From the NCBI GenBank assembly GCA_030699125.1, contig JAUYKM010000016.1, forward strand, positions 12,845 through 76,844: 64,000 nt of DNA, read 5' to 3'. Positions 24,257 to 58,595 of this stretch are shown piece by piece (the stretch's first letter is position 1; every line of letters starts with the position of its first letter). Both the position numbers and the translations under genes were made by a program. This stretch comes from Candidatus Daviesbacteria bacterium (GTDB taxonomy: Bacteria; Patescibacteriota; Microgenomatia; Daviesbacterales; UBA10151). Under the pieces are notes generated by a model, which was given only the letters and a program-made list of their open reading frames with translations, made no database searches and had not been told where the DNA came from.

Positions 24257-25555
24257 CTAATCAATCCCAGGCACTGGAAATCTTCCAGCAAATTTTTCTA
24301 CTTCTCTTCTGATTTGTATTAAATTTTTATTCTGATGTAATTTAATTTTGGCCATTTTTAGAAAATCTTTTCTTTTATCTTGCTCTTTAGGTAAATCCAA
24401 TCCTATTATTTCTTCTAGTGCTCTTTTAATCCAGCTTGCCACCTTAATCATATCCTTTTCATCCATCCCACGGGTAGTAAGAGCTGGTGTTCCCAATCTT
24501 ATTCCCGAGGGATAAAAAGCTGATGCTGGCTCACCAGGAATGGTATTTCTATTAACAGTAATCCCTACCTCCTCTAGGGCATATTGAGCTTGATAACCCA
24601 TTCCATACCCATACCTTATCAAGGATAGAAGTATCAGATGAGTTTCAGAAATTGTTCCTAACTCCTTTGCTAAAAAAGAAGCATTCTTAGCAACTTGCTG
24701 AGCATATTTTTTAAATGAAGGCTTCAATGCTTCTTCTAAACAAACAGCAATAGCTGCTGTTTGATGATTATGTGGTCCACCTTGAGCACCAGGAATAATG
24801 GCTTTTTCTATTTTAGATTTTATGTCCGGATCTTTTTTTAAACCTCTCTCAGTTACCAAAATCATTGCTCCCCTTGGTCCCCTCAAAGTTTTGTGAGTGG
24901 TAGTCATAATAATATCCACATATGGGACAGGTGATTCATGCACTCCTGCTATTATTAGACCAGTTATATGAGAGCAATCCGCAACTAAAGTTGCCTCAAC
25001 TTCATCGGCAATTTTTCTAAATCTTCTGTAATCTAGTTTATATGGGTAAGCTGTTGTCCCTGCCCAGATTAATTTTGGCTTATGAATTTTTGCAAGTTTT
25101 TCCAATTCTTCAAAATCTATTTTCCAATCTTTACCAACATTATAATTAACAGCTTTATAAAAAATTGAAGAAAAACTCAAGTTGGCTCCATGAGTGAGAT
25201 GTCCACCAGATGCTATAGATAATCCCATCACTACATCCCCAGGATTACAAACGGCCATGGTAATAATTAAATTAGCAGGTGACCCTGAATATGGTTGGAC
25301 TAGAGCAACAGGTACCTTGAATAATTTTTTTGCCAAGTCAGAAGCATAATTTTCAATCTTATCTATTACTTCATTACCACCGTAATACCTTCTACCAGGA
25401 AAACCTTCTGAATATTTATTGGTGAGGATTGATCCTAAGGCTTTTAAAACATCTTCCGAGACATAATTTTCCGAAGGAATCATCTCCAGCCCATATTTTT
25501 GTCTGTGAGCCTCTTCTGCAATTAATGGAAAAACCTGTGATGCCATAGAAATCAC
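24257..25555 (-). CDS. glyA: Serine hydroxymethyltransferase
   Basis: 432 aa; PLP-lysine motif TTTHKTLRGPRG. Confidence 0.92.
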   Translation of the reverse strand: MISMASQVFPLIAEEAHRQKYGLEMIPSENYVSEDVLKALGSILTNKYSEGFPGRRYYGGNEVIDKIENYASDLAKKLFKVPVALVQPYSGSPANLIITMAVCNPGDVVMGLSIASGGHLTHGANLSFSSIFYKAVNYNVGKDWKIDFEELEKLAKIHKPKLIWAGTTAYPYKLDYRRFRKIADEVEATLVADCSHITGLIIAGVHESPVPYVDIIMTTTHKTLRGPRGAMILVTERGLKKDPDIKSKIEKAIIPGAQGGPHNHQTAAIAVCLEEALKPSFKKYAQQVAKNASFLAKELGTISETHLILLSLIRYGYGMGYQAQYALEEVGITVNRNTIPGEPASAFYPSGIRLGTPALTTRGMDEKDMIKVASWIKRALEEIIGLDLPKEQDKRKDFLKMAKIKLHQNKNLIQIRREVEKFAGRFPVPGID

Positions 25556-25595: not shown

Positions 25596-25622
25596 GGTAC
25601 AATCAGTTCACATGATTGTACC
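25596..25622 (-). terminator. Hairpin (GGTACAATC-N9-GATTGTACC) downstream of dnaX stop / upstream of glyA start
   Basis: Perfect 9-bp stem. A T-run on the minus strand appears only ~25 nt later, so function (terminator vs. regulatory) is uncertain. Confidence 0.3.
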
Positions 25623-25631
25623 AAGAAGATA

Positions 25632-27248
25632 TTAATTTACAGTATCAGAGTTAAAAATTTCTGCTGCGGCGCGGATAATTTCATCATCCGCTGCTATCTC
25701 AATATTGGCTACATCCTCACTTCTTGCCGGCCTACTTCCCAAAATAACAGATACTTTAATTGATCTTCCTAAAATATCAGACAAAATTGATTCTAAAAGA
25801 TCTCGATTTTTGGGAGCCTCCATTATTCTCTGATGAAATGAATATGGCACCTCAATTATAACTTGAGAATCCGTACAATCGGAAATACTGATAGATCTAA
25901 GGAGAGCTTCCAATGAAAAATTATAAGGCCTGATAGTTTCCAAAACAAAAGTCCATTTTTCTTTAAGTTTTAATATATCAGGGGAATCAGAATTTGACGG
26001 TGGATGATGGATAGTGGGAGATGGTTCTTTGATGATAGAAGGTTGAGAATGGATTTGCTCTTCTTCTATTTTCGATTCTCTATCTTCTACCACTACCTTC
26101 AACTCTCTAAGATCGTTAGATTGCAGGCTTTGCTTATTTTCTACTGTCTCAATTGACTCTGGACTACAGATCTCCACAACTGCCAATTCTAGCGGTAAGG
26201 AAGGAATGGAGGTGAATTTTGATTTCTCATAAGCCTTCTGTAGAATATCTAGAATTTTTATTAGCGTTTGGTTGGAAAAATTGGCCGATAATTCAACCAA
26301 ACTCTGATAGTTCTCATTGCTTAAGTGTGGCTCAACTAGTAGAGCTCCCAGACCGTTTTTAATCAAGACCAAATATCTTAAGTTTTCCATCAGTAGTAGA
26401 TTCAACTGTTTAAAATCAACACCCTTTTGGGCAAAATTTGACAGAATTGTTAACCCTGCCGTAGTATCTTTTTGTAATAGACAGTTTATCAATTTAAAAA
26501 TCTCACCAAAGCCACTTTCCTGGAAAATATTTTCTATTACTTCTTTGGTAATTTTTTTATCAAGACTGGCTATCTGATCTAATAGCTTAACCCCGTCTCT
26601 AAAACTACCTTCGGCCTTTTTTACCAGAGATTTTATGGCATCTTCTTCTATATCTATTTTTTCCTGCTTGATAATTTTTGATAAAGTCTCTTCTAATTCC
26701 TGGGGCGAGGCCAATTTAAAATCCAGTCTCTGAACTCGCGATAAAATAGTTTTTGGCATTTTGGAAACATCAGTGGTGGCCAAAATAAATAAAGCGTGAG
26801 AGGGAGGTTCTTCCAAAGTTTTCAGTAGAGCATTAAAAGCTTCGGTGGTCAGCATATGTACTTCATCAATAATGTAGACCTTTTTTTTACTACTGGTGGG
26901 AGAAAGCTTAATTTTCTCCCTCAAAGATCTAATGTCTTCAATCCCTCTATTGGAAGCGGCATCTATCTCAATAAGATCTAAGTTACTTCCATCAGTTATA
27001 GATAAACATGTTGTACACCTATTACAAGGAGAGTCCTTTTCTTCACAATTGACCATTTTGGCCAGAATTCTGGCAGTTGAAGTTTTACCAGTTCCCCGAG
27101 GCCCCACGAAGAGATAAGCGTGAGATAATTTATTGGCAGAGTAAGCAGATTGCAGAGTTTTTTTAACAGATTCTTGTCCAACTAGATCTTTAAGTGTCTG
27201 TGGACGATATTTCAAATAGAAAACCCCCATTAAACTTTGTTCTGCCAT
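25632..27248 (-). CDS. dnaX: DNA polymerase III subunit gamma/tau
   Basis: 538 aa; FVGPRGTGKTSTARILAK Walker A, zinc module CEEKDSPCNRCTTC, DEVHML. Confidence 0.92.
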   Translation of the reverse strand: MAEQSLMGVFYLKYRPQTLKDLVGQESVKKTLQSAYSANKLSHAYLFVGPRGTGKTSTARILAKMVNCEEKDSPCNRCTTCLSITDGSNLDLIEIDAASNRGIEDIRSLREKIKLSPTSSKKKVYIIDEVHMLTTEAFNALLKTLEEPPSHALFILATTDVSKMPKTILSRVQRLDFKLASPQELEETLSKIIKQEKIDIEEDAIKSLVKKAEGSFRDGVKLLDQIASLDKKITKEVIENIFQESGFGEIFKLINCLLQKDTTAGLTILSNFAQKGVDFKQLNLLLMENLRYLVLIKNGLGALLVEPHLSNENYQSLVELSANFSNQTLIKILDILQKAYEKSKFTSIPSLPLELAVVEICSPESIETVENKQSLQSNDLRELKVVVEDRESKIEEEQIHSQPSIIKEPSPTIHHPPSNSDSPDILKLKEKWTFVLETIRPYNFSLEALLRSISISDCTDSQVIIEVPYSFHQRIMEAPKNRDLLESILSDILGRSIKVSVILGSRPARSEDVANIEIAADDEIIRAAAEIFNSDTVN

Positions 27249-37399: not shown

Positions 37400-38056
37400 T
37401 CAAGAGGGCAGTTTTTTTGATATGACTTTTATCAATTCTCGAAAAATATCATTTTTATTTCTCAAGTTACCATCTCTCATACAATTTATTACTTCCCAAT
37501 TTTTTTCATCTTGAGATAATTTAAGATAAATTTTTGCAGCTTTTCCTTCATGAACAAGATTTTCTTCATGGATATCTTTCAGATGATCCTTTATGGCATT
37601 TTGCTGACCTACTTTCGCGTCAAGTTTTAAGAGAATTGTTAAATTTGGTTTTGGCATTCCATTTGTCTGATATTCCAGTTCCTCTAACCACTTAAGGAAA
37701 TTTTCTCTTTCTTTATCAACTAAATTGGCTCCCTGGTGAGCCTTATTAGAAGAAATATACCTATTGGCAATCACCAATTTCCCCTGATCTAACCACCCTC
37801 TAATAAGATCTCTAGCCGTTAATCTATCATTGGCATAAAGTTTGGCAATTGAGTATGGATCCAAATCTTCAGTCAGACCCATTTTTCCTTCTAAATATCT
37901 TTTAATTTGTACAGTATATTTATTTTTACCATACTGAGGAAAAGAAATAATTTCAAAAGGAATATTTTTTTGTTTTAAATATTGGGAAAGCAAGTCAATT
38001 TGGGTGGTCTTACCAGACCCATCTATCCCATCTATAACAATCAGCTTACCTTTCAT
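37400..38056 (-). CDS. tmk: Thymidylate kinase
   Basis: 218 aa; LIVIDGIDGSGKTTQ P-loop. Confidence 0.9.
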   Translation of the reverse strand: MKGKLIVIDGIDGSGKTTQIDLLSQYLKQKNIPFEIISFPQYGKNKYTVQIKRYLEGKMGLTEDLDPYSIAKLYANDRLTARDLIRGWLDQGKLVIANRYISSNKAHQGANLVDKERENFLKWLEELEYQTNGMPKPNLTILLKLDAKVGQQNAIKDHLKDIHEENLVHEGKAAKIYLKLSQDEKNWEVINCMRDGNLRNKNDIFRELIKVISKKLPS

Positions 38057-39663
38057 AACTTCACTTTTGATGCAGCTTTGACAAAGCCTACGAATAATGG
38101 GTGAGGCGCGAGAGGTCTGGATTTTAATTCCGGATGAAATTGAGTGCCTATAAAAAACGGGTGATTTTTAAGCTCAATCACTTCCACTAATTTTCCATCA
38201 GGAGTTGTTCCCGAAACCATAAATCCTTTTTTCTCCAACTCATCTTTGAATTTATTATTAAACTCATATCTGTGTCGGTGTCTCTCGGAAATATCTTTTT
38301 TCCCATAAAGAGAGCAAGCTATACTTCCCTCCTTTAATACACAATCCCATGCCCCGAGTCTCATTGTAGCTCCATAGTTTCTCTCCAACAGCTTTTTCTC
38401 CTGATCCGGCATAATATGGATCACTGGATAGGCAGTTTTGGGATCGATCTCTGTGGTGTTGGCATCTTTGTATCCTAAAACATTTCTGGCAAATTCCACC
38501 GTGGCAAGCTGCATGCCGTAACATAAACCAAAATAAGGAATCTGATTTTCTCTGCAATATTTTATGGTAACAATTTTTCCTTCAATATCACGCGATCCAA
38601 AACCACCCGGTACTATAATCCCCTGAAAACCTTTTAGGATACTACCATCTTTCAAAACTTTCCCTGCATCAACCCAGTGGATCTCCGGCTTTAACCCTTG
38701 CGTCCAGGAAGCATGTTTAATTGCCTCAATTACTGATACGTATGCATCAGCCAGGGTATAATCCCCTGTTGCAAAATATTTACCAACAATGCCAATTTTT
38801 ACCACTTTCTTTGAATTATCAATTTTGGCAACGAAATCTTTCCAATCTTTTAGATCCTTTTGACTTTTCTTTAATTTTAATTTGCCTAAAATTTTCTGAA
38901 CTAAATTTTGCTCTTCATATCCTAAGGGAACTTTATAAATGCTGTCTACATCCGGGGCTGAAATTATGTATTCAGGATCCAAACCGGAGGAAACAGCCAA
39001 TTTTTTGCGTCTGAATTCATCTATTGGTTTTTCAGCTCGGGCTAAAATAATATCCGGTTGAATCCCTACCGCATTTAAATCTCTAACAGACATCTGAGCC
39101 GGCTTTGATTTTAATTCTCCAATTGAGGGAGGCACTGGTAAATAAGTTATATGAACATGAATCACATCATCGTGTTTTTTAAGTTTTAAAAGCCTGTTTG
39201 CCTCTAAAAATAACATATTTTGATACTCGCCTGCTGTTCCCCCAATCTCTACTAATACAACATCTGCATTCCTCATCTTTCCGGCTTGATGAATCCTTTC
39301 TATTATCTCCTCAGTCACATGATTAATATCCACAAATTCTCCGTCATATTCCAAATTTCTTTCTTTTTGTAAAACTGTCAGATAAATTGAACCTTGAGTA
39401 GCAATATTATTTTTATCCAAAGATTCATTTAGGAATCTTTCATAATGACCCAAGTCCTGGTCTGTTTCTATACCATCATCCAAGACAAACACCTCACCGT
39501 GTTCTATTGGGTTCATAGTGCCGGCATCAACATTTAAGTAGGGATCCATTTTTAAGGGAGAGACTTTAAATCCTGCTGATTTTAAAAGAAGGGCAATTGA
39601 GGCAGTAGCAATACCTTTACCAATTCCACTAATAACACCACCACTGACAAATATGTATTTCAT
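38053..39663 (-). CDS. pyrG: CTP synthase
   Basis: 536 aa; N-terminal IFVSGGVISGIGKGI, GATase GLCYGMQ. Confidence 0.92.
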   Translation of the reverse strand: MKYIFVSGGVISGIGKGIATASIALLLKSAGFKVSPLKMDPYLNVDAGTMNPIEHGEVFVLDDGIETDQDLGHYERFLNESLDKNNIATQGSIYLTVLQKERNLEYDGEFVDINHVTEEIIERIHQAGKMRNADVVLVEIGGTAGEYQNMLFLEANRLLKLKKHDDVIHVHITYLPVPPSIGELKSKPAQMSVRDLNAVGIQPDIILARAEKPIDEFRRKKLAVSSGLDPEYIISAPDVDSIYKVPLGYEEQNLVQKILGKLKLKKSQKDLKDWKDFVAKIDNSKKVVKIGIVGKYFATGDYTLADAYVSVIEAIKHASWTQGLKPEIHWVDAGKVLKDGSILKGFQGIIVPGGFGSRDIEGKIVTIKYCRENQIPYFGLCYGMQLATVEFARNVLGYKDANTTEIDPKTAYPVIHIMPDQEKKLLERNYGATMRLGAWDCVLKEGSIACSLYGKKDISERHRHRYEFNNKFKDELEKKGFMVSGTTPDGKLVEVIELKNHPFFIGTQFHPELKSRPLAPHPLFVGFVKAASKVKL

Positions 39664-39727: not shown

Positions 39728-39749
39728 GTTGATACTTGCAAGTATCAAC
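39728..39749. promoter_or_regulatory. Perfect 22-bp palindrome GTTGATACTTG|CAAGTATCAAC upstream of pyrG
   Basis: Read directly. Lies 65-86 nt upstream of the pyrG start codon and 14 nt downstream of the preceding gene's stop. Candidate operator or terminator hairpin. Confidence 0.45.
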
Positions 39750-39762
39750 TCCAGGTTACAGT

Positions 39763-40140
39763 TTAAATTTCATAACCAATCTTATTTCCCTCTAAGTGAT
39801 CTCTCAATGCTAATTCTCTTCCTGATCTAACGAAACTGGTACGAACTTCAAATGGTAGCCCAAATCCTGCTACTTCTTCTCTTAATTCTCTAGCGTATTG
39901 ACTAACCTTCCGAAGAGTGGGTTTTTCTAAGCCTTCTTCACTGGCTTCCTCAGTAAGTACACTCCATACAAAAACCCCAAAGGTTCCTTCTTTTTTTCCT
40001 CTTATAAAACCTTCGCTTATATATGTCTTCCGCGCTATTCCTAAATCTTCAACTTTCAATCCGTATGCTGATGTAGCTATTAAAAGACTCCATCCTGTTT
40101 TTGGTGGGTCTTCTCTTGCAGCTTCTAAATTAATTCCCAT
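39763..40140 (-). CDS. Hypothetical protein (125 aa)
   Basis: Intact ORF, no family recognised. Adjacent to the topA-3'-end remnant; possible cassette cargo. Confidence 0.4.
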   Translation of the reverse strand: MGINLEAAREDPPKTGWSLLIATSAYGLKVEDLGIARKTYISEGFIRGKKEGTFGVFVWSVLTEEASEEGLEKPTLRKVSQYARELREEVAGFGLPFEVRTSFVRSGRELALRDHLEGNKIGYEI

Positions 40141-46354: not shown

Positions 46355-46753
46355 CTATCTCACTCTTACTAAATTTCCATTCAGGTCTAATTCAACAAAA
46401 TGTTCAGCTCTGCCTTCTCGAAAAGCCGCGCACTGATTTTGATCTAAATCATCTATGTCCTGACGAGGCTCGTGGACCATATCCACCACCCAGTCTGGCA
46501 TCAGAGCATTTGTTAAGCAAGGTCCCTCAGAAAAATTTAGCCCTTCTTCTTTTCTTAGTTGATATAAATACCTGGCCTGATTTACGGCCGTACTAATTTC
46601 ATCTTTGGTAATATAGTCTTTTTGAAAATCTACATTAAGTATTAAGGTTAAGGCTGCCACGAGTATTACAAAGGTTAAGGTTAAGATTAAAAACACAAAT
46701 TTGGGAATTGTCTTCATCATAAACATTATCTCATCAATCCTCACACTCGACAA
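46355..46753 (-). CDS. Hypothetical membrane-anchored protein
   Basis: 132 aa; one N-terminal TM helix (FVFLILTLTFVILVAALTLIL). Confidence 0.4.
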   Translation of the reverse strand: MSSVRIDEIMFMMKTIPKFVFLILTLTFVILVAALTLILNVDFQKDYITKDEISTAVNQARYLYQLRKEEGLNFSEGPCLTNALMPDWVVDMVHEPRQDIDDLDQNQCAAFREGRAEHFVELDLNGNLVRVR

Positions 46754-55948: not shown

Positions 55949-56003
55949 GATGGGAGTTTAACATACTCTTGATTTAAAATTAAGATAAGAGTATAAACAA
56001 AAT

Positions 56004-56462
56004 ATGACAAACGGATTAGAAACAGCAAGAAATTATTTAGGTTCAGTTGTAGAAAGAACTGTAGGGTGGGCTGGCTATCAAAGAGAGCATCATTTAGAAT
56101 CTATTTCTCATCCCATTACCAATCAATCATCCCCAGTAGAGATAAAGCACAATCAAAGTCAAGCTGTGCTTACAGGTTTAACTGTAGGTTTCTTGACTCA
56201 GATTTCAGCACCTATAACTTATGAAGGCTTTAAACGATTTGCTAATATGGACACTCTACCTCTTGTGCTTATGGGTACAGGTGCAGTTGATACTTTGTCA
56301 ACAATTCCTGCTGTTATTTTTTTGAGCTATGGTCATCCAGCTGAAGCTATTCTTGTAAAACTTGCTGCCAACGCTGCAATTCATGTGGGTTTGGATCTTA
56401 TAAGAGCTGCCGCCCGTAGAATAAAAACCTTCAGACCCCCTGCAGATATTTTAGCTGTATAA
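56004..56462 (+). CDS. Hypothetical protein (152 aa)
   Basis: Intact ORF, A/G/L-rich C-terminal half, no family recognised. Confidence 0.35.
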   Translation: MTNGLETARNYLGSVVERTVGWAGYQREHHLESISHPITNQSSPVEIKHNQSQAVLTGLTVGFLTQISAPITYEGFKRFANMDTLPLVLMGTGAVDTLSTIPAVIFLSYGHPAEAILVKLAANAAIHVGLDLIRAAARRIKTFRPPADILAV

Positions 56463-56565
56463 ATTGCCGTCTAAATTTTTGCAATCCTTTTGCAATCCCC
56501 ATGTATATAAACTCCATACCTCTATACAATTTGCCTACGGCCGTTATATTTTTGTATACTAACTT

Positions 56566-57060
56566 CTATCTTCCTAAATTTTCTGATTCCAAAACTATCA
56601 CCCAATCCTCTATCCCTACGCTTTTAATAAAATTCCTTAAAGATTCTACGCAATCTTTTTTGGTGGCCCAAACGCTTTGCTGCCAAGGGACAAAACCCCA
56701 ATTTTTAAGACTTGCCCTTAGTAAATTCCTAAGCACTCTTCTTTTTTCCGGAACATCAAAAACAACCACCCTCCATTTTCCATCCCATTTTTTGTTATCT
56801 AACTTGATACTCTCCCAAACCGCTTTCTGTCTTCCTTTGTCAGTTAATCTGTATGCTAATCTTTTATCATCTACAAAATCAATTAAACCTCTTTCCCTAA
56901 GTCTTTTTAAGGTTTGAGATAAAGATGATTTTTTAAGATCCGGATAACCATAATGGTAACGATAATGATGATAAGCAAAATCTTCAAATCTAACATATCC
57001 ATCTACACTTTTTTCTAAGGCTAAAAGGATAAAATTCCCTATACTCTTTTTTGTCCTCAT
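56566..57060 (-). CDS. Putative transcriptional regulator: N-terminal wHTH plus Cas2-like/PaaX-C-like domain
   Basis: 164 aa; N-terminal helical DNA-binding-like region. C-terminal WRVVVFDVPEKRRVLRNLLRASLKNWGFVPWQQSVWA resembles the Cas2 / PaaX C-terminal fold signature. Confidence 0.55.
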   Translation of the reverse strand: MRTKKSIGNFILLALEKSVDGYVRFEDFAYHHYRYHYGYPDLKKSSLSQTLKRLRERGLIDFVDDKRLAYRLTDKGRQKAVWESIKLDNKKWDGKWRVVVFDVPEKRRVLRNLLRASLKNWGFVPWQQSVWATKKDCVESLRNFIKSVGIEDWVIVLESENLGR

Positions 57061-57063
57061 ATA

Positions 57064-57095
57064 GACATTTTTACTACGGCCGTAGTAAAAATGTC
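57064..57095. promoter_or_regulatory. Perfect 32-bp palindrome GACATTTTTACTACGG|CCGTAGTAAAAATGTC abutting the regulator start codon
   Basis: Read directly. 3 nt from the ATG (57058-57060) of the regulator gene. Core CTACGGCCGT recurs at 56535-56544 just downstream of the same gene. Confidence 0.6.
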
Positions 57096-57144
57096 AATTG
57101 GCCTAATCAGGCTTTTCTGTGTAAACTTAACCCTAACCACGACA

Positions 57145-57173
57145 CTTGTAAATCAGCTTAACTGTTAATATAA
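57145..57173 (+). promoter_or_regulatory. Sigma70-like promoter (TTGTAA-17-TATAAT) for the 57182 gene, implying a near-leaderless mRNA
   Basis: -35 TTGTAA at 57145-57150, 17-nt spacer, -10 TATAAT at 57168-57173. The ATG at 57182 is only ~8 nt past the -10. Confidence 0.5.
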
Positions 57174-57181
57174 TCCACCCT

Positions 57182-58552
57182 ATGACTAGTAACCAAAATC
57201 CTGAATCATTACAACTTACCCCTTTAACTTCTTTATCAGAATTTATGACTGCTAATCTGCAGATTGATGAAGAAAAAAGAGAAGGAATCAGCCCGGTTGG
57301 TATTATTCTTTATGCTGACAAAAGTAAAATGGTACTAATTGGTTCCCGCACTAATGAAAAGTTTAAGGGAGCTTTAGTTTGTAGCTATCAAGACACCCCT
57401 GAAGGATTTGATCCAAGTCTGGTAATTGATGGAAAAAACAGAATTATAGATTTGAGTGATTACCATGAATTAAAAGTAGCACAAGTCACTTTTGGTGGTG
57501 CTGATATAAATACCTATCGATCAATTCGTACCCTACCCTCAGTGATAGTCAGAATGCATACCCAAAATCCCATGACTAATCAGGAAGAAATTGTTAATGT
57601 AGATGAGGAAGAATTATTAAGAATTTTTACAGGTGAGGCAGGTGGAATTGCTGTTTTTTCCGGAGCCAGTTTAACAGAAGAAAATGCTTTGGTGGTTGAC
57701 AAAGATACACAGGATAAAAAATCGGGTTTAGTTTTTTTTATGCATCCTGATACTGACCCTACTACAGGATTTGATTCTGTGGCAGGATTATATTCTTTTC
57801 TTAGAAACTTAAACAAAGAATTTATTGATACCCCTCGATATCCTTTGCAAGCGCAATCTTTACATGCTTTTGATTTTGGTTTGAAAGATGGTTTGTATGA
57901 TTTTGGCGGCATAGAAGTCAGGGAAGAGCTTTTTAGGACCCAAGTTATTGCCAATACCAGGCTGGCTGCCAGATTGCACCAACCGCGATATCAGGAATTT
58001 TTAAATTCACATTTGCCGGATGTGAATACACCTGCTTGGGCCAGCTTTGTCAGAAGAATTTTAATGATAATTGGTATAAAAGATACGGATTTTAAACAAC
58101 TAGCTAACAGGTCAATTGATAGACTAATCTTAGGAGAGGACGTTCCAGATGAAACTTTACTTCTCCCTGAACCAAAGCAACAAAAAGATAATAATTTTTT
58201 CCTAAAACTTAGAACTACTAAAGCTAGGGATATCTGGCAACAAATAGGTGATAAATATACCAATTATTGGTATAGTCGGAGTTTTATTGCAAATTTAGTC
58301 GATTTGATTGCTGAAGCTGAATCCTTATATGAAATTGAGGATGGAATAATTTCTTTACAAAGATTAGGGGATTCAAGCTTTAAAAATATTAATTTTGGAT
58401 ATAAATTAGATATACACGCAAAGGAAAAAAGAATTAAATGGAGTGACGCTTATTCTAATGAACATAAAGGTGAAGAACTACTCCAATACCTAATGGCAGA
58501 GGCTTTGGAAAAGAAAAAACAAATTGAAGCGTCAATTCCAATGACATTCTGA
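57182..58552 (+). CDS. Hypothetical soluble protein (456 aa), no recognisable family
   Basis: Long intact ORF divergent from the regulator. No TM segment, no nucleotide-binding or catalytic motif recognised. Confidence 0.5.
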   Translation: MTSNQNPESLQLTPLTSLSEFMTANLQIDEEKREGISPVGIILYADKSKMVLIGSRTNEKFKGALVCSYQDTPEGFDPSLVIDGKNRIIDLSDYHELKVAQVTFGGADINTYRSIRTLPSVIVRMHTQNPMTNQEEIVNVDEEELLRIFTGEAGGIAVFSGASLTEENALVVDKDTQDKKSGLVFFMHPDTDPTTGFDSVAGLYSFLRNLNKEFIDTPRYPLQAQSLHAFDFGLKDGLYDFGGIEVREELFRTQVIANTRLAARLHQPRYQEFLNSHLPDVNTPAWASFVRRILMIIGIKDTDFKQLANRSIDRLILGEDVPDETLLLPEPKQQKDNNFFLKLRTTKARDIWQQIGDKYTNYWYSRSFIANLVDLIAEAESLYEIEDGIISLQRLGDSSFKNINFGYKLDIHAKEKRIKWSDAYSNEHKGEELLQYLMAEALEKKKQIEASIPMTF

Positions 58553-58595
58553 CCTATACAATATCTTTTCCCCAATGTTAAAATAAGAACAACTT

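Follow-up and report, generated by a model that had tools for sequence, protein, structure and literature searches.

Looping repressors with paired operators, such as lambda CI (whose OR and OL flank cI-rexAB), the lac repressor (O1/O2) and DeoR, have one operator over the promoter and an auxiliary operator hundreds of base pairs away, and the lambda operators bracket the repressor's own gene. In insertion sequences (IS) and in repetitive extragenic palindrome (REP)/RAYT units, a gene lies between its cognate terminal or palindromic repeats, the left one containing the promoter and the right one the stop codon. The genomes of bacteria of the candidate phyla radiation (CPR, or Patescibacteria) are tiny and encode very few recognisable transcription factors, and to our knowledge almost nothing is known about gene regulation in this group. 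Here we describe a single-gene unit found in a 64-kb stretch of DNA (hereafter the window) from a contig of Candidatus Daviesbacteria (CPR/Microgenomates; GC 37%), in which the gene of a regulator of 164 amino acids (aa), which we label REG, lies between two copies of a palindrome, called site 1 (upstream of REG) and site 2 (past the REG stop codon). The closest described protein is PaaX, which recognises TGATTC-N27-GAATCA and, by sterically hindering RNA polymerase, represses its own promoter, Px; a Cas2-like domain is its dimerisation module (PMC9493321). The features of the unit, in window coordinates, are the following.

56566-57060, minus strand (ATG at 57060-57058): REG, a 164-aa truncated PaaX-like protein, assigned from its PF20803 match, AlphaFold2 (AF2) model and Foldseek search
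57064-57095: site 1, perfect 32-bp palindrome GACATTTTTACTACGGCCGTAGTAAAAATGTC with 13-nt arms around a CGGCCG core, predicted operator in the REG core promoter
57097-57092, minus strand: REG -35 element TTGACA, overlapping the outer 4 nt of the palindrome
57073-57068, minus strand: candidate REG -10 element TAAAAA, in the inner arm of the palindrome, after an 18-nt spacer; it ends 7 nt before the ATG
56523-56558: site 2, 8 nt past the REG stop codon, degenerate copy of the palindrome, TATACAATTTGCCTACGGCCGTTATATTTTTGTATA, with the core CGGCCG at 56538-56543

The initial annotation of this DNA had drawn attention to the perfect 32-bp palindrome that ends 3 nt from the REG start codon, and both the coordinates and the shuffles agree with it: site 1 is the longest palindrome in the window, the runner-up measuring 22 bp, and 0 of 100 dinucleotide-preserving shuffles matched it. 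The same annotation had noticed that the core CTACGGCCGT recurs at 56535-56544 and had described the gene as bracketed by the motif. The bracketing is in fact stronger than was proposed, as a full degenerate site lies past the stop codon and is conserved family-wide. In the window, site 2 is identical to site 1 at 18 of 22 positions over 56523-56544 and at 21 of 32 over the full site; the centres of the two sites are 539 bp apart, and site 2 occupies the convergent gap between REG and the gene of a 152-aa protein. The 64 kb contain six CGRYCG cores (5.0 +/- 2.3 in shuffles), two of which flank REG. There is no third site in the window, the occurrence of ACGGCCGT at 46584 being intragenic, with arms that do not match. 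Avoidance of the CGRYCG core as a restriction site was considered and rejected, its count equalling the dinucleotide expectation.

We fetched 55 related loci, one genome per species. The 35 closest and the window itself (n = 36, all Daviesbacteria/Microgenomates; upstream site scorable in 35) were analysed in detail, and 19 remote homologues represent other CPR phyla. The site-gene-site unit is present at about 50 loci across CPR phyla, comprising the 36 Daviesbacteria/Microgenomates loci and most of the 19 remote homologues. Of the 36 loci, 34 have a registered site 2, either 2-33 nt after the stop codon or overlapping it (as in ATACCATTTCG-TGA-TGCGATCGTACAAG...GGTAT), and it has the same core as site 1 and arms that co-vary with those of site 1. 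Cognate sites agree at 22.6 of 32 positions and non-cognate pairs at 16.0, and the cognate partner ranks first in 12 of 31 loci. The two sites stand in direct register, with asymmetric positions matching at 50% in direct and 28% in inverted orientation (direct similarity exceeding inverted in 20 loci versus 4, p = 3e-4). Their centre-to-centre distance is 516-558 bp in Daviesbacteria (mean ~534 bp) and 610-637 bp in the remote homologues. The latter, which include Paceibacterota, Curtissbacteria, Zambryskibacteria, Saccharibacteria and Nealsonbacteria, have the unit with different palindromes; here too the upstream site overlaps a promoter element, and in two of these loci the flanking palindromes have a perfect core that is identical in both and measures 30 bp (L049) or 38 bp (L055).

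Among orthologues, identity within site 1 is 0.67-0.87 against 0.25-0.30 for the next 38 nt (orthologue groups A, B, C and F; 0.61 against 0.40 in group D), and within site 2 it is 0.65-0.81 against 0.30-0.34 for the flanks (groups A and B). Judged by this contrast with chance-level flanks (0.65-0.87 against 0.25-0.34, both sites, groups A and B), the sites are under purifying selection. A strict site pattern, ACA-N9-10-CGRYCG-N9-10-TGT, was searched in 570 kb of related DNA, and 42 of the 45 distinct sites that it recovered flank a REG gene.

The REG family has at least 609 homologues. Proteins of the homologous loci are 43%-75% identical to the window protein, the closest orthologue (P0009) reaching 88%, and one assembly alone encodes at least 4 REG paralogues. 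Clustering of the flanking genes separates ~10 paralogue lineages, each with conserved synteny and fixed orientation across species, at a protein identity of 54-81% within lineages across species. Neighbours of REG include mreB, a Wzy_C/TPR gene, carAB, pyrEF, mreCD, argS, dprA, a comEC-like gene and a sortase gene. In two species (L023 and L025), the same three genes (clusters c42, c16 and c17) lie between two different REG paralogues, which are ~3 kb apart and have separate sites of their own. A Saccharibacteria contig (L049, 3596-7776) carries two site-REG-site cassettes 3208 bp apart within a larger near-identical direct repeat, together with an 82-nt repeat in four copies and a 40-nt hairpin-like repeat in three.

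The initial annotation had read the protein as a winged helix-turn-helix (wHTH) followed by a Cas2/PaaX-C-like domain, and profile searches support this. The wHTH covers residues ~7-75 (weak Pfam matches to HTH_27, MarR_2, PadR and HxlR over residues 37-80) and is followed at residues ~90-162 by a Cas2-like ferredoxin-fold domain, which matches PF20803 (PaaX_M) over residues 90-162 with E = 2.5e-21 (76 bits, cut-off 24). The AF2 model (mean predicted local distance difference test score, pLDDT, 81.5) shows a winged helix (H-H-H-beta-beta) and then a beta-alpha-beta-beta-alpha-beta domain. Its top match in the PDB is E. coli PaaX (8a39, E = 4.8e-5, 162 columns aligned by Foldseek), followed by the PaaX-like structures 3l09 and 3kfw. 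Chains of Cas2 match the C-terminal domain only (~96-159), with TM-scores of 0.49-0.63 normalised to the Cas2 chain. A sequence profile search of the PDB with the REG alignment returned nothing at E <= 0.01. PF20803 is present in all 32 family members scanned and the PaaX_C domain in none of them, the window protein ending at residue 164, directly after the Cas2-like domain. Neither REG nor the 32 family members matched a transposase, recombinase or HUH domain in Pfam. REG fails the PaaX equivalog model (TIGR02277, 33.7 bits, cut-off 264.55) as well as both curated Cas2 cut-offs (PF09827, 17.0 against 23.8 bits; TIGR01573, 20.2 against 24.5 bits); since it nevertheless has the PF20803 domain and the PaaX fold, it is a truncated, or 'mini', PaaX-like protein. 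PADLOC likewise gave only sub-threshold Cas2 and wHTH matches.

Some homologues (P0057 and P0109) carry the NCBI name 'CRISPR-associated endonuclease Cas2', which is very probably a mis-annotation. The window contains no CRISPR-like array (no direct repeats of at least 22 nt within 150 nt of each other), and no cas1 or other cas-like protein was seen among the 20 recurrent neighbour clusters read (36 loci). A CRISPR link for REG was rejected, given the lack of arrays and the sub-threshold Cas2 scores. Residue Asp102, in an FDVPE motif, is invariant across the REG family, and we take it to be the counterpart of the metal-binding Asp of Cas2. The winged-helix domain also contains a His/Tyr-rich motif, AYHHYRYHY (residues 29-37, window 56950-56976), whose H31, Y33 and Y35 are nearly invariant in 32 homologues and which could be a metal or ligand site.

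Site 1 spans the REG promoter from the -35 element to just beyond the -10 element. In 27 of 35 loci the outer left edge of the site is a perfect TTGACA (at least five of six matches in 31 of 35), the CGRYCG core lies 20-22 nt upstream of the ATG in 29 of 35, and the inner-arm hexamer of REG orthologues and paralogues is of the TACAAT, TATAAT or TATTAA type. Upstream of REG there is no Shine-Dalgarno (SD)-like motif, nor is there one upstream of the divergent gene discussed below. From this promoter geometry, the REG mRNA is probably leaderless. The initial annotation had the palindrome occlude the ribosome-binding region of REG, a proposal that we reject: the arrangement TTGACA-18-TAAAAA-7-ATG leaves no leader to occlude, and the palindrome is therefore not a structure of the 5' untranslated region. 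A leaderless start would make site 1 a DNA-level operator within the REG core promoter. The conserved outer ACA and TGT arms, ~24-26 bp apart inside the TTGACA...-10 promoter, are consistent with autorepression through spaced inverted repeats. Site 2 lacks the TTGACA, is more symmetric than site 1 at that edge and, on these features, looks like a pure binding site and not a promoter.

We therefore favour a reading, to which we would give a probability of about 0.6, in which REG is a dimeric mini-PaaX autorepressor that would bind site 1 in its leaderless promoter and site 2 at the 3' end of its gene. A REG dimer would bind the ~32-bp palindrome, its winged helices touching the outer ACA...TGT arms. 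When sitting on site 1, over the -35 element, spacer and -10 element of its own sigma-70-type promoter, it would exclude RNA polymerase and, by so doing, the REG gene would repress itself. REG would also bind site 2, in direct orientation ~534 bp away and just past the stop codon, where it might either cooperate with site 1 through a DNA loop around the REG gene, or else form a roadblock or an insulator at this 3' end.

Three further features belong to the immediate surroundings of the unit.

56004-56462, plus strand: gene of a 152-aa protein, convergent with REG and divergent from mreB, a conserved right-hand neighbour of the REG orthologue group
57146-57174, plus strand: promoter of the 456-aa gene, TTGTAA (57146-57151), 17-nt spacer, TATAAT (57169-57174); 10 of 12 matches
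57182-58552, plus strand: gene of a 456-aa protein for which neither domains nor folds gave a match; it adjoins the REG cassette without belonging to it

The orthologue group to which the window REG belongs has mreB and a 152-like gene on one side and the Wzy_C/TPR gene on the other. Counterparts of the 152-aa protein stand at the same position in L070 (31% identity, E = 2e-13) and L071 (E = 6e-9, both by tblastn). Between the stop codon of the 152-aa gene (56462) and site 2, the 11-mer TTTTGCAATCC is exactly duplicated in tandem (56477-56498). The locus with the closest orthologue (L070, encoding P0009) reads Wzy_C gene, site 1-REG-site 2, 152-like gene and mreB, with an 88-nt gap between REG and the Wzy_C gene and no 456-aa gene. 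Three other loci (L008, L012 and L016) have the same Wzy-REG-mreB synteny, also without a 456-aa gene, and L071 has VIT1 instead on the side facing site 1. Conversely, homologues of the 456-aa protein occur without an adjacent REG in L001-5 (where HicAB, VIT1 and Phd/PIN occupy the slot), L006, L007, L063/64, L065/66, L072 and L073 (the latter two more distant). The initial annotation had seen in REG and the 456-aa gene a self-contained two-gene module; these comparisons speak against it, and on the gene orders compared the 456-aa gene is a neighbour in a variable slot and not a conserved REG partner. The slot, which corresponds to window ~55950-58595 (mreB to Wzy_C), holds HicA/HicB, Phd/PIN, VIT1 and a 68-aa radical S-adenosylmethionine (SAM)-like fragment (CNRACSHC) in L001 (1077-8161), from a related Daviesbacteria, and is therefore a variable hot spot rich in toxin-antitoxin (TA) modules. 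The 456-aa gene would thus be a separate leaderless transcription unit that happens to lie in this slot next to site 1.

The 456-aa protein, 100% identical to an NCBI entry named Candidatus Daviesbacteria, had been described as free of recognisable domains, and so it remained in Pfam, NCBIfam, PADLOC and PHROGs; in particular, profile searches gave no match to a housekeeping family. It has 8 close homologues, and a profile search of 1.84 billion representatives yielded 80 clusters. The family is small and found in Daviesbacteria, its only named distant member being from Candidatus Beckwithbacteria. None of 53 members matched Pfam, NCBIfam or PADLOC, nor did the window protein match PHROGs, and a sequence profile search of the PDB gave no match. 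In the AF2 model (pLDDT 71) the N-terminal half is beta-rich (36-190) and the C-terminal half helical, with no significant Foldseek match in PDB or BFVD; recurring weak matches to single-stranded DNA-binding proteins (SSB), OB-fold and DUF669 proteins (probability <= 0.3) are a lead only. A metagenome scan for relatives found 3 loci, two of which duplicate L001, the third resembling L065. The gene of a distant member in L073 (5181-6749) has a large serine recombinase gene (domains Resolvase, Recombinase and Zn_ribbon_recom) two genes away, and this copy may be on a mobile element.

A leaderless promoter had been proposed for the 456-aa gene as well. The TTGTAA-17-TATAAT-7-ATG arrangement is indeed present, the -10 element ending 7 nt before the ATG at 57182, and because TATAAT-7 nt-ATG is kept upstream of the homologues in five other lineages (L001, L007, L063/64, L065 and L069), a leaderless 456-aa transcript is well supported by sequence conservation. 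The arrangement is not peculiar to the 456-aa gene. Of the 27 genes in the window that are first in their operon or stand alone, 9 show a strict -10 hexamer at a distance of 5-9 nt upstream of the ATG (background ~0.3 per offset), and an SD-like motif precedes 1 of these 27 genes against 9 of 33 operon-internal genes. Leaderless-type promoters thus look like the norm for first genes in this genome. Between site 1 and the 456-aa promoter there is a plus-strand terminator-like hairpin (57100-57113), GGCCTAATCAGGCT followed by TTTCTGTGT; the count of such motifs is within chance.

All three distinct strict-pattern sites in the 570 kb that stand without a REG gene lie beside 456-aa homologues. The solo site of L001 (5891-5922) is 94 nt upstream of the homologue, exactly where the window has REG, while those of L007 (1673-1703) and L063 (1933-1964) lie 9 and 58 nt past the stop codon of theirs. 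The L007 site is adjoined by a second one (~1716-1753), of another paralogue type and with the decayed core ACAGCCGT. The nearest 456-aa homologue (81% identical, L069) has a site ~90 nt upstream, at the contig end. The simplest reading is that each solo site is what remains after a REG cassette was deleted between its direct repeats, in a slot shared with the 456-aa gene. The solo sites may also be operators that act in trans, or traces of the excision and insertion of cassettes.

Several points weigh against REG as a plain autorepressor. The -10 element of the window REG is weak (TAAAAA, 4/6), the distance between the sites shows no helical phasing (Rayleigh p 0.1-0.8), and looping needs a tetramer or higher, to which nothing points. 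The genes next to the different paralogues are unrelated housekeeping genes, and no output is obvious for a repressor with detectable sites only around its own gene. The solo sites, moreover, are not predicted by pure autoregulation. One might speculate that the palindrome-gene-palindrome unit is a distinct CPR-wide class of self-contained element, either an excision-prone or addiction cassette or a protein-DNA insulator or roadblock, and not an instance of ordinary regulon control; this speculation we hold to be rather unlikely. If this were true, a mini-PaaX with cognate sites solely around its own gene would exist as many specificity-diverged paralogues per reduced genome; as a cassette it would leave solo-site footprints such as those of L001, L007 and L063, and as an insulator or roadblock it would partition transcription where promoters are leaderless and terminators few. 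Another proposal sees in the unit a present or former single-gene cassette, excisable or mobile, with the palindromes as att-like direct repeats whose recombination would delete or insert the gene and with REG possibly as the site-recognition factor. It would account for the direct orientation of the sites, for their near-identity in some loci (30/32 in L012, besides the identical perfect palindromes of L049 and L055) and for the 13-6-13 layout, which resembles recombinase core sites. It also fits the footprint-like solo sites (two paralogue types side by side in L007, a site in place of REG in L001), the varying position of REG and its site relative to the 456-aa gene between lineages, and the occurrence of several paralogues per genome amid unrelated housekeeping genes and beside TA modules. 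We nevertheless consider it unlikely. Synteny and orientation are conserved across species in the ~10 paralogue lineages, there are no near-identical dispersed copies (the sole duplicate, that of L049, belongs to a 3.2-kb repeat), and REG has no recombinase or transposase domain. Neither a REG homologue in viral contigs nor a target-site duplication was found, the longest k-mers shared by the outer flanks being distributed like those of cross-locus controls; and deletion between 30-bp direct repeats requires no dedicated machinery.

That REG controls the divergent 456-aa gene through the palindrome is suggested by the 121 bp that separate the two genes and by REG-type sites that adjoin 456-aa homologues. 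Such sites exist in 5 of the 9 lineages examined, ~90-103 nt upstream of the ATG in three (the window, L069, and L001, which lacks REG) and just downstream in two (L007 and L063); all the distinct solo sites adjoin such homologues as well. However, site 1 is centred ~103 bp upstream of the 456-aa start and leaves its -35 element and promoter untouched, the REG orthologues of the same synteny do without this gene, and both REG and a site are missing beside the homologues in L006, L065/66, L072 and L073. The shared variable slot between mreB and the Wzy_C gene explains the co-localisation, and control of the 456-aa gene by REG seems to us distinctly unlikely. Site 2, which by the predicted promoter geometry is transcribed while site 1 is not, could alternatively act as RNA, a hairpin at the 3' end of a leaderless REG mRNA that terminates or stabilises it and that the Cas2-like domain might bind or cut. 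Some loci do have a long perfect site-2 hairpin (42 nt in L055, 32 nt in L049), there are ribonucleases among Cas2 and VapD relatives (PMC3351183), and Asp102 is invariant in the REG family. In the window, though, the site-2 RNA (-8.7 kcal/mol) is not more stable than its shuffles (z = -0.95), no consistent T-run follows site 2 across the loci examined, and the need for a hairpin would not by itself hold site 2 similar to site 1 or keep asymmetric positions in register; an RNA role of site 2, unsupported as hairpin or terminator in the window, is very improbable. We find it most improbable that REG is a single-polypeptide TA-like or addiction element, that is, a Cas2/VapD-type nuclease fused to an autorepressing winged helix. 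REG does occupy slots otherwise held by HicAB and Phd/PIN modules, its predicted tight, promoter-embedded autoregulation recalls that of TA operons, and its Cas2-like fold has a conserved acidic residue, yet there is no second gene, the unit being one gene between two sites with flanking genes that differ between paralogue groups. Furthermore, the same domain is a dimerisation module in PaaX (PMC9493321), the PADLOC matches are sub-threshold, and the REG paralogues are stably inherited.

Two other structures in the window lie away from the REG unit. A perfect 22-bp palindrome, GTTGATACTTGCAAGTATCAAC (39728-39749), the second longest in the window, falls between the minus-strand genes at 39763-40140 and 38053-39663 and could be another operator. 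A hairpin with a 10-bp stem, GGTACAATCAGTTCACATGATTGTACC (25596-25622), separates the minus-strand genes at 24257-25546 and 25632-27248.

The autorepressor reading of REG raises the puzzle of why the only visible sites of a repressor should bracket its own gene across whole phyla. With its at least 609 homologues and at least 4 loci in one assembly, the REG family may be among the larger families of DNA-binding proteins in the CPR, some of its members being labelled at present 'hypothetical' or, very probably wrongly, 'Cas2'. The site-gene-site layout would supply ready pairs of cognate protein and predicted operator with naturally diverged specificities, which could serve as orthogonal repressor/operator parts. 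Leaderless promoters as the apparent default in a Daviesbacteria genome would bear on gene calling and on start-codon assignment in CPR metagenome-assembled genomes (MAGs).

Compared with the systems described at the outset, REG shares with Cas2 the ferredoxin-like fold of residues ~96-159, together with the weak PF09827 and TIGR01573 matches, whereas Cas2 does not have the N-terminal wHTH. With insertion sequences and REP/RAYT units it has in common a promoter in the left repeat, a stop codon at or in the right repeat, repeats that co-vary with the protein and several copies per genome. It differs from them in that its repeats are direct, in the lack of target-site duplications and of a transposase or HUH domain, on which grounds an IS-like element was rejected, and in the age of its syntenic paralogues; nor do its sites form a dispersed repeat family, with only 3 distinct solo sites in 570 kb. 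The looping repressors lambda CI, lac and DeoR differ from REG in that the REG bracket is tight (one gene, ~534 bp), placed exactly at the start and stop codons and conserved across phyla, with no helical phasing seen. The greatest likeness is to PaaX of E. coli and Pseudomonas (phenylacetyl-CoA-responsive; 8A39), which like REG has an N-terminal winged helix followed by a Cas2-like PaaX_M domain; PaaX recognises widely spaced inverted repeats (TGATTC-N27-GAATCA) and, by excluding RNA polymerase, acts as repressor of its own promoter (PMC9493321). Unlike PaaX (~305 aa), REG has 164 aa and no C-terminal helical effector-response domain, stands without paa genes nearby and exists as many paralogues per CPR genome, and its two flanking sites per gene are a feature not mentioned for PaaX in the review PMC9493321. 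The literature searched for PaaX, PaaX-like or Cas2-like proteins in CPR, Patescibacteria or Saccharibacteria gave no description of the REG family or its layout. The protein fold and the logic of autorepression are thus already known from PaaX; the truncated architecture, the expansion in the CPR, the operator-gene-operator bracket, strictly conserved across phyla, and the near-absence of sites elsewhere appear to be undescribed in that literature and set REG apart from its closest described relative.

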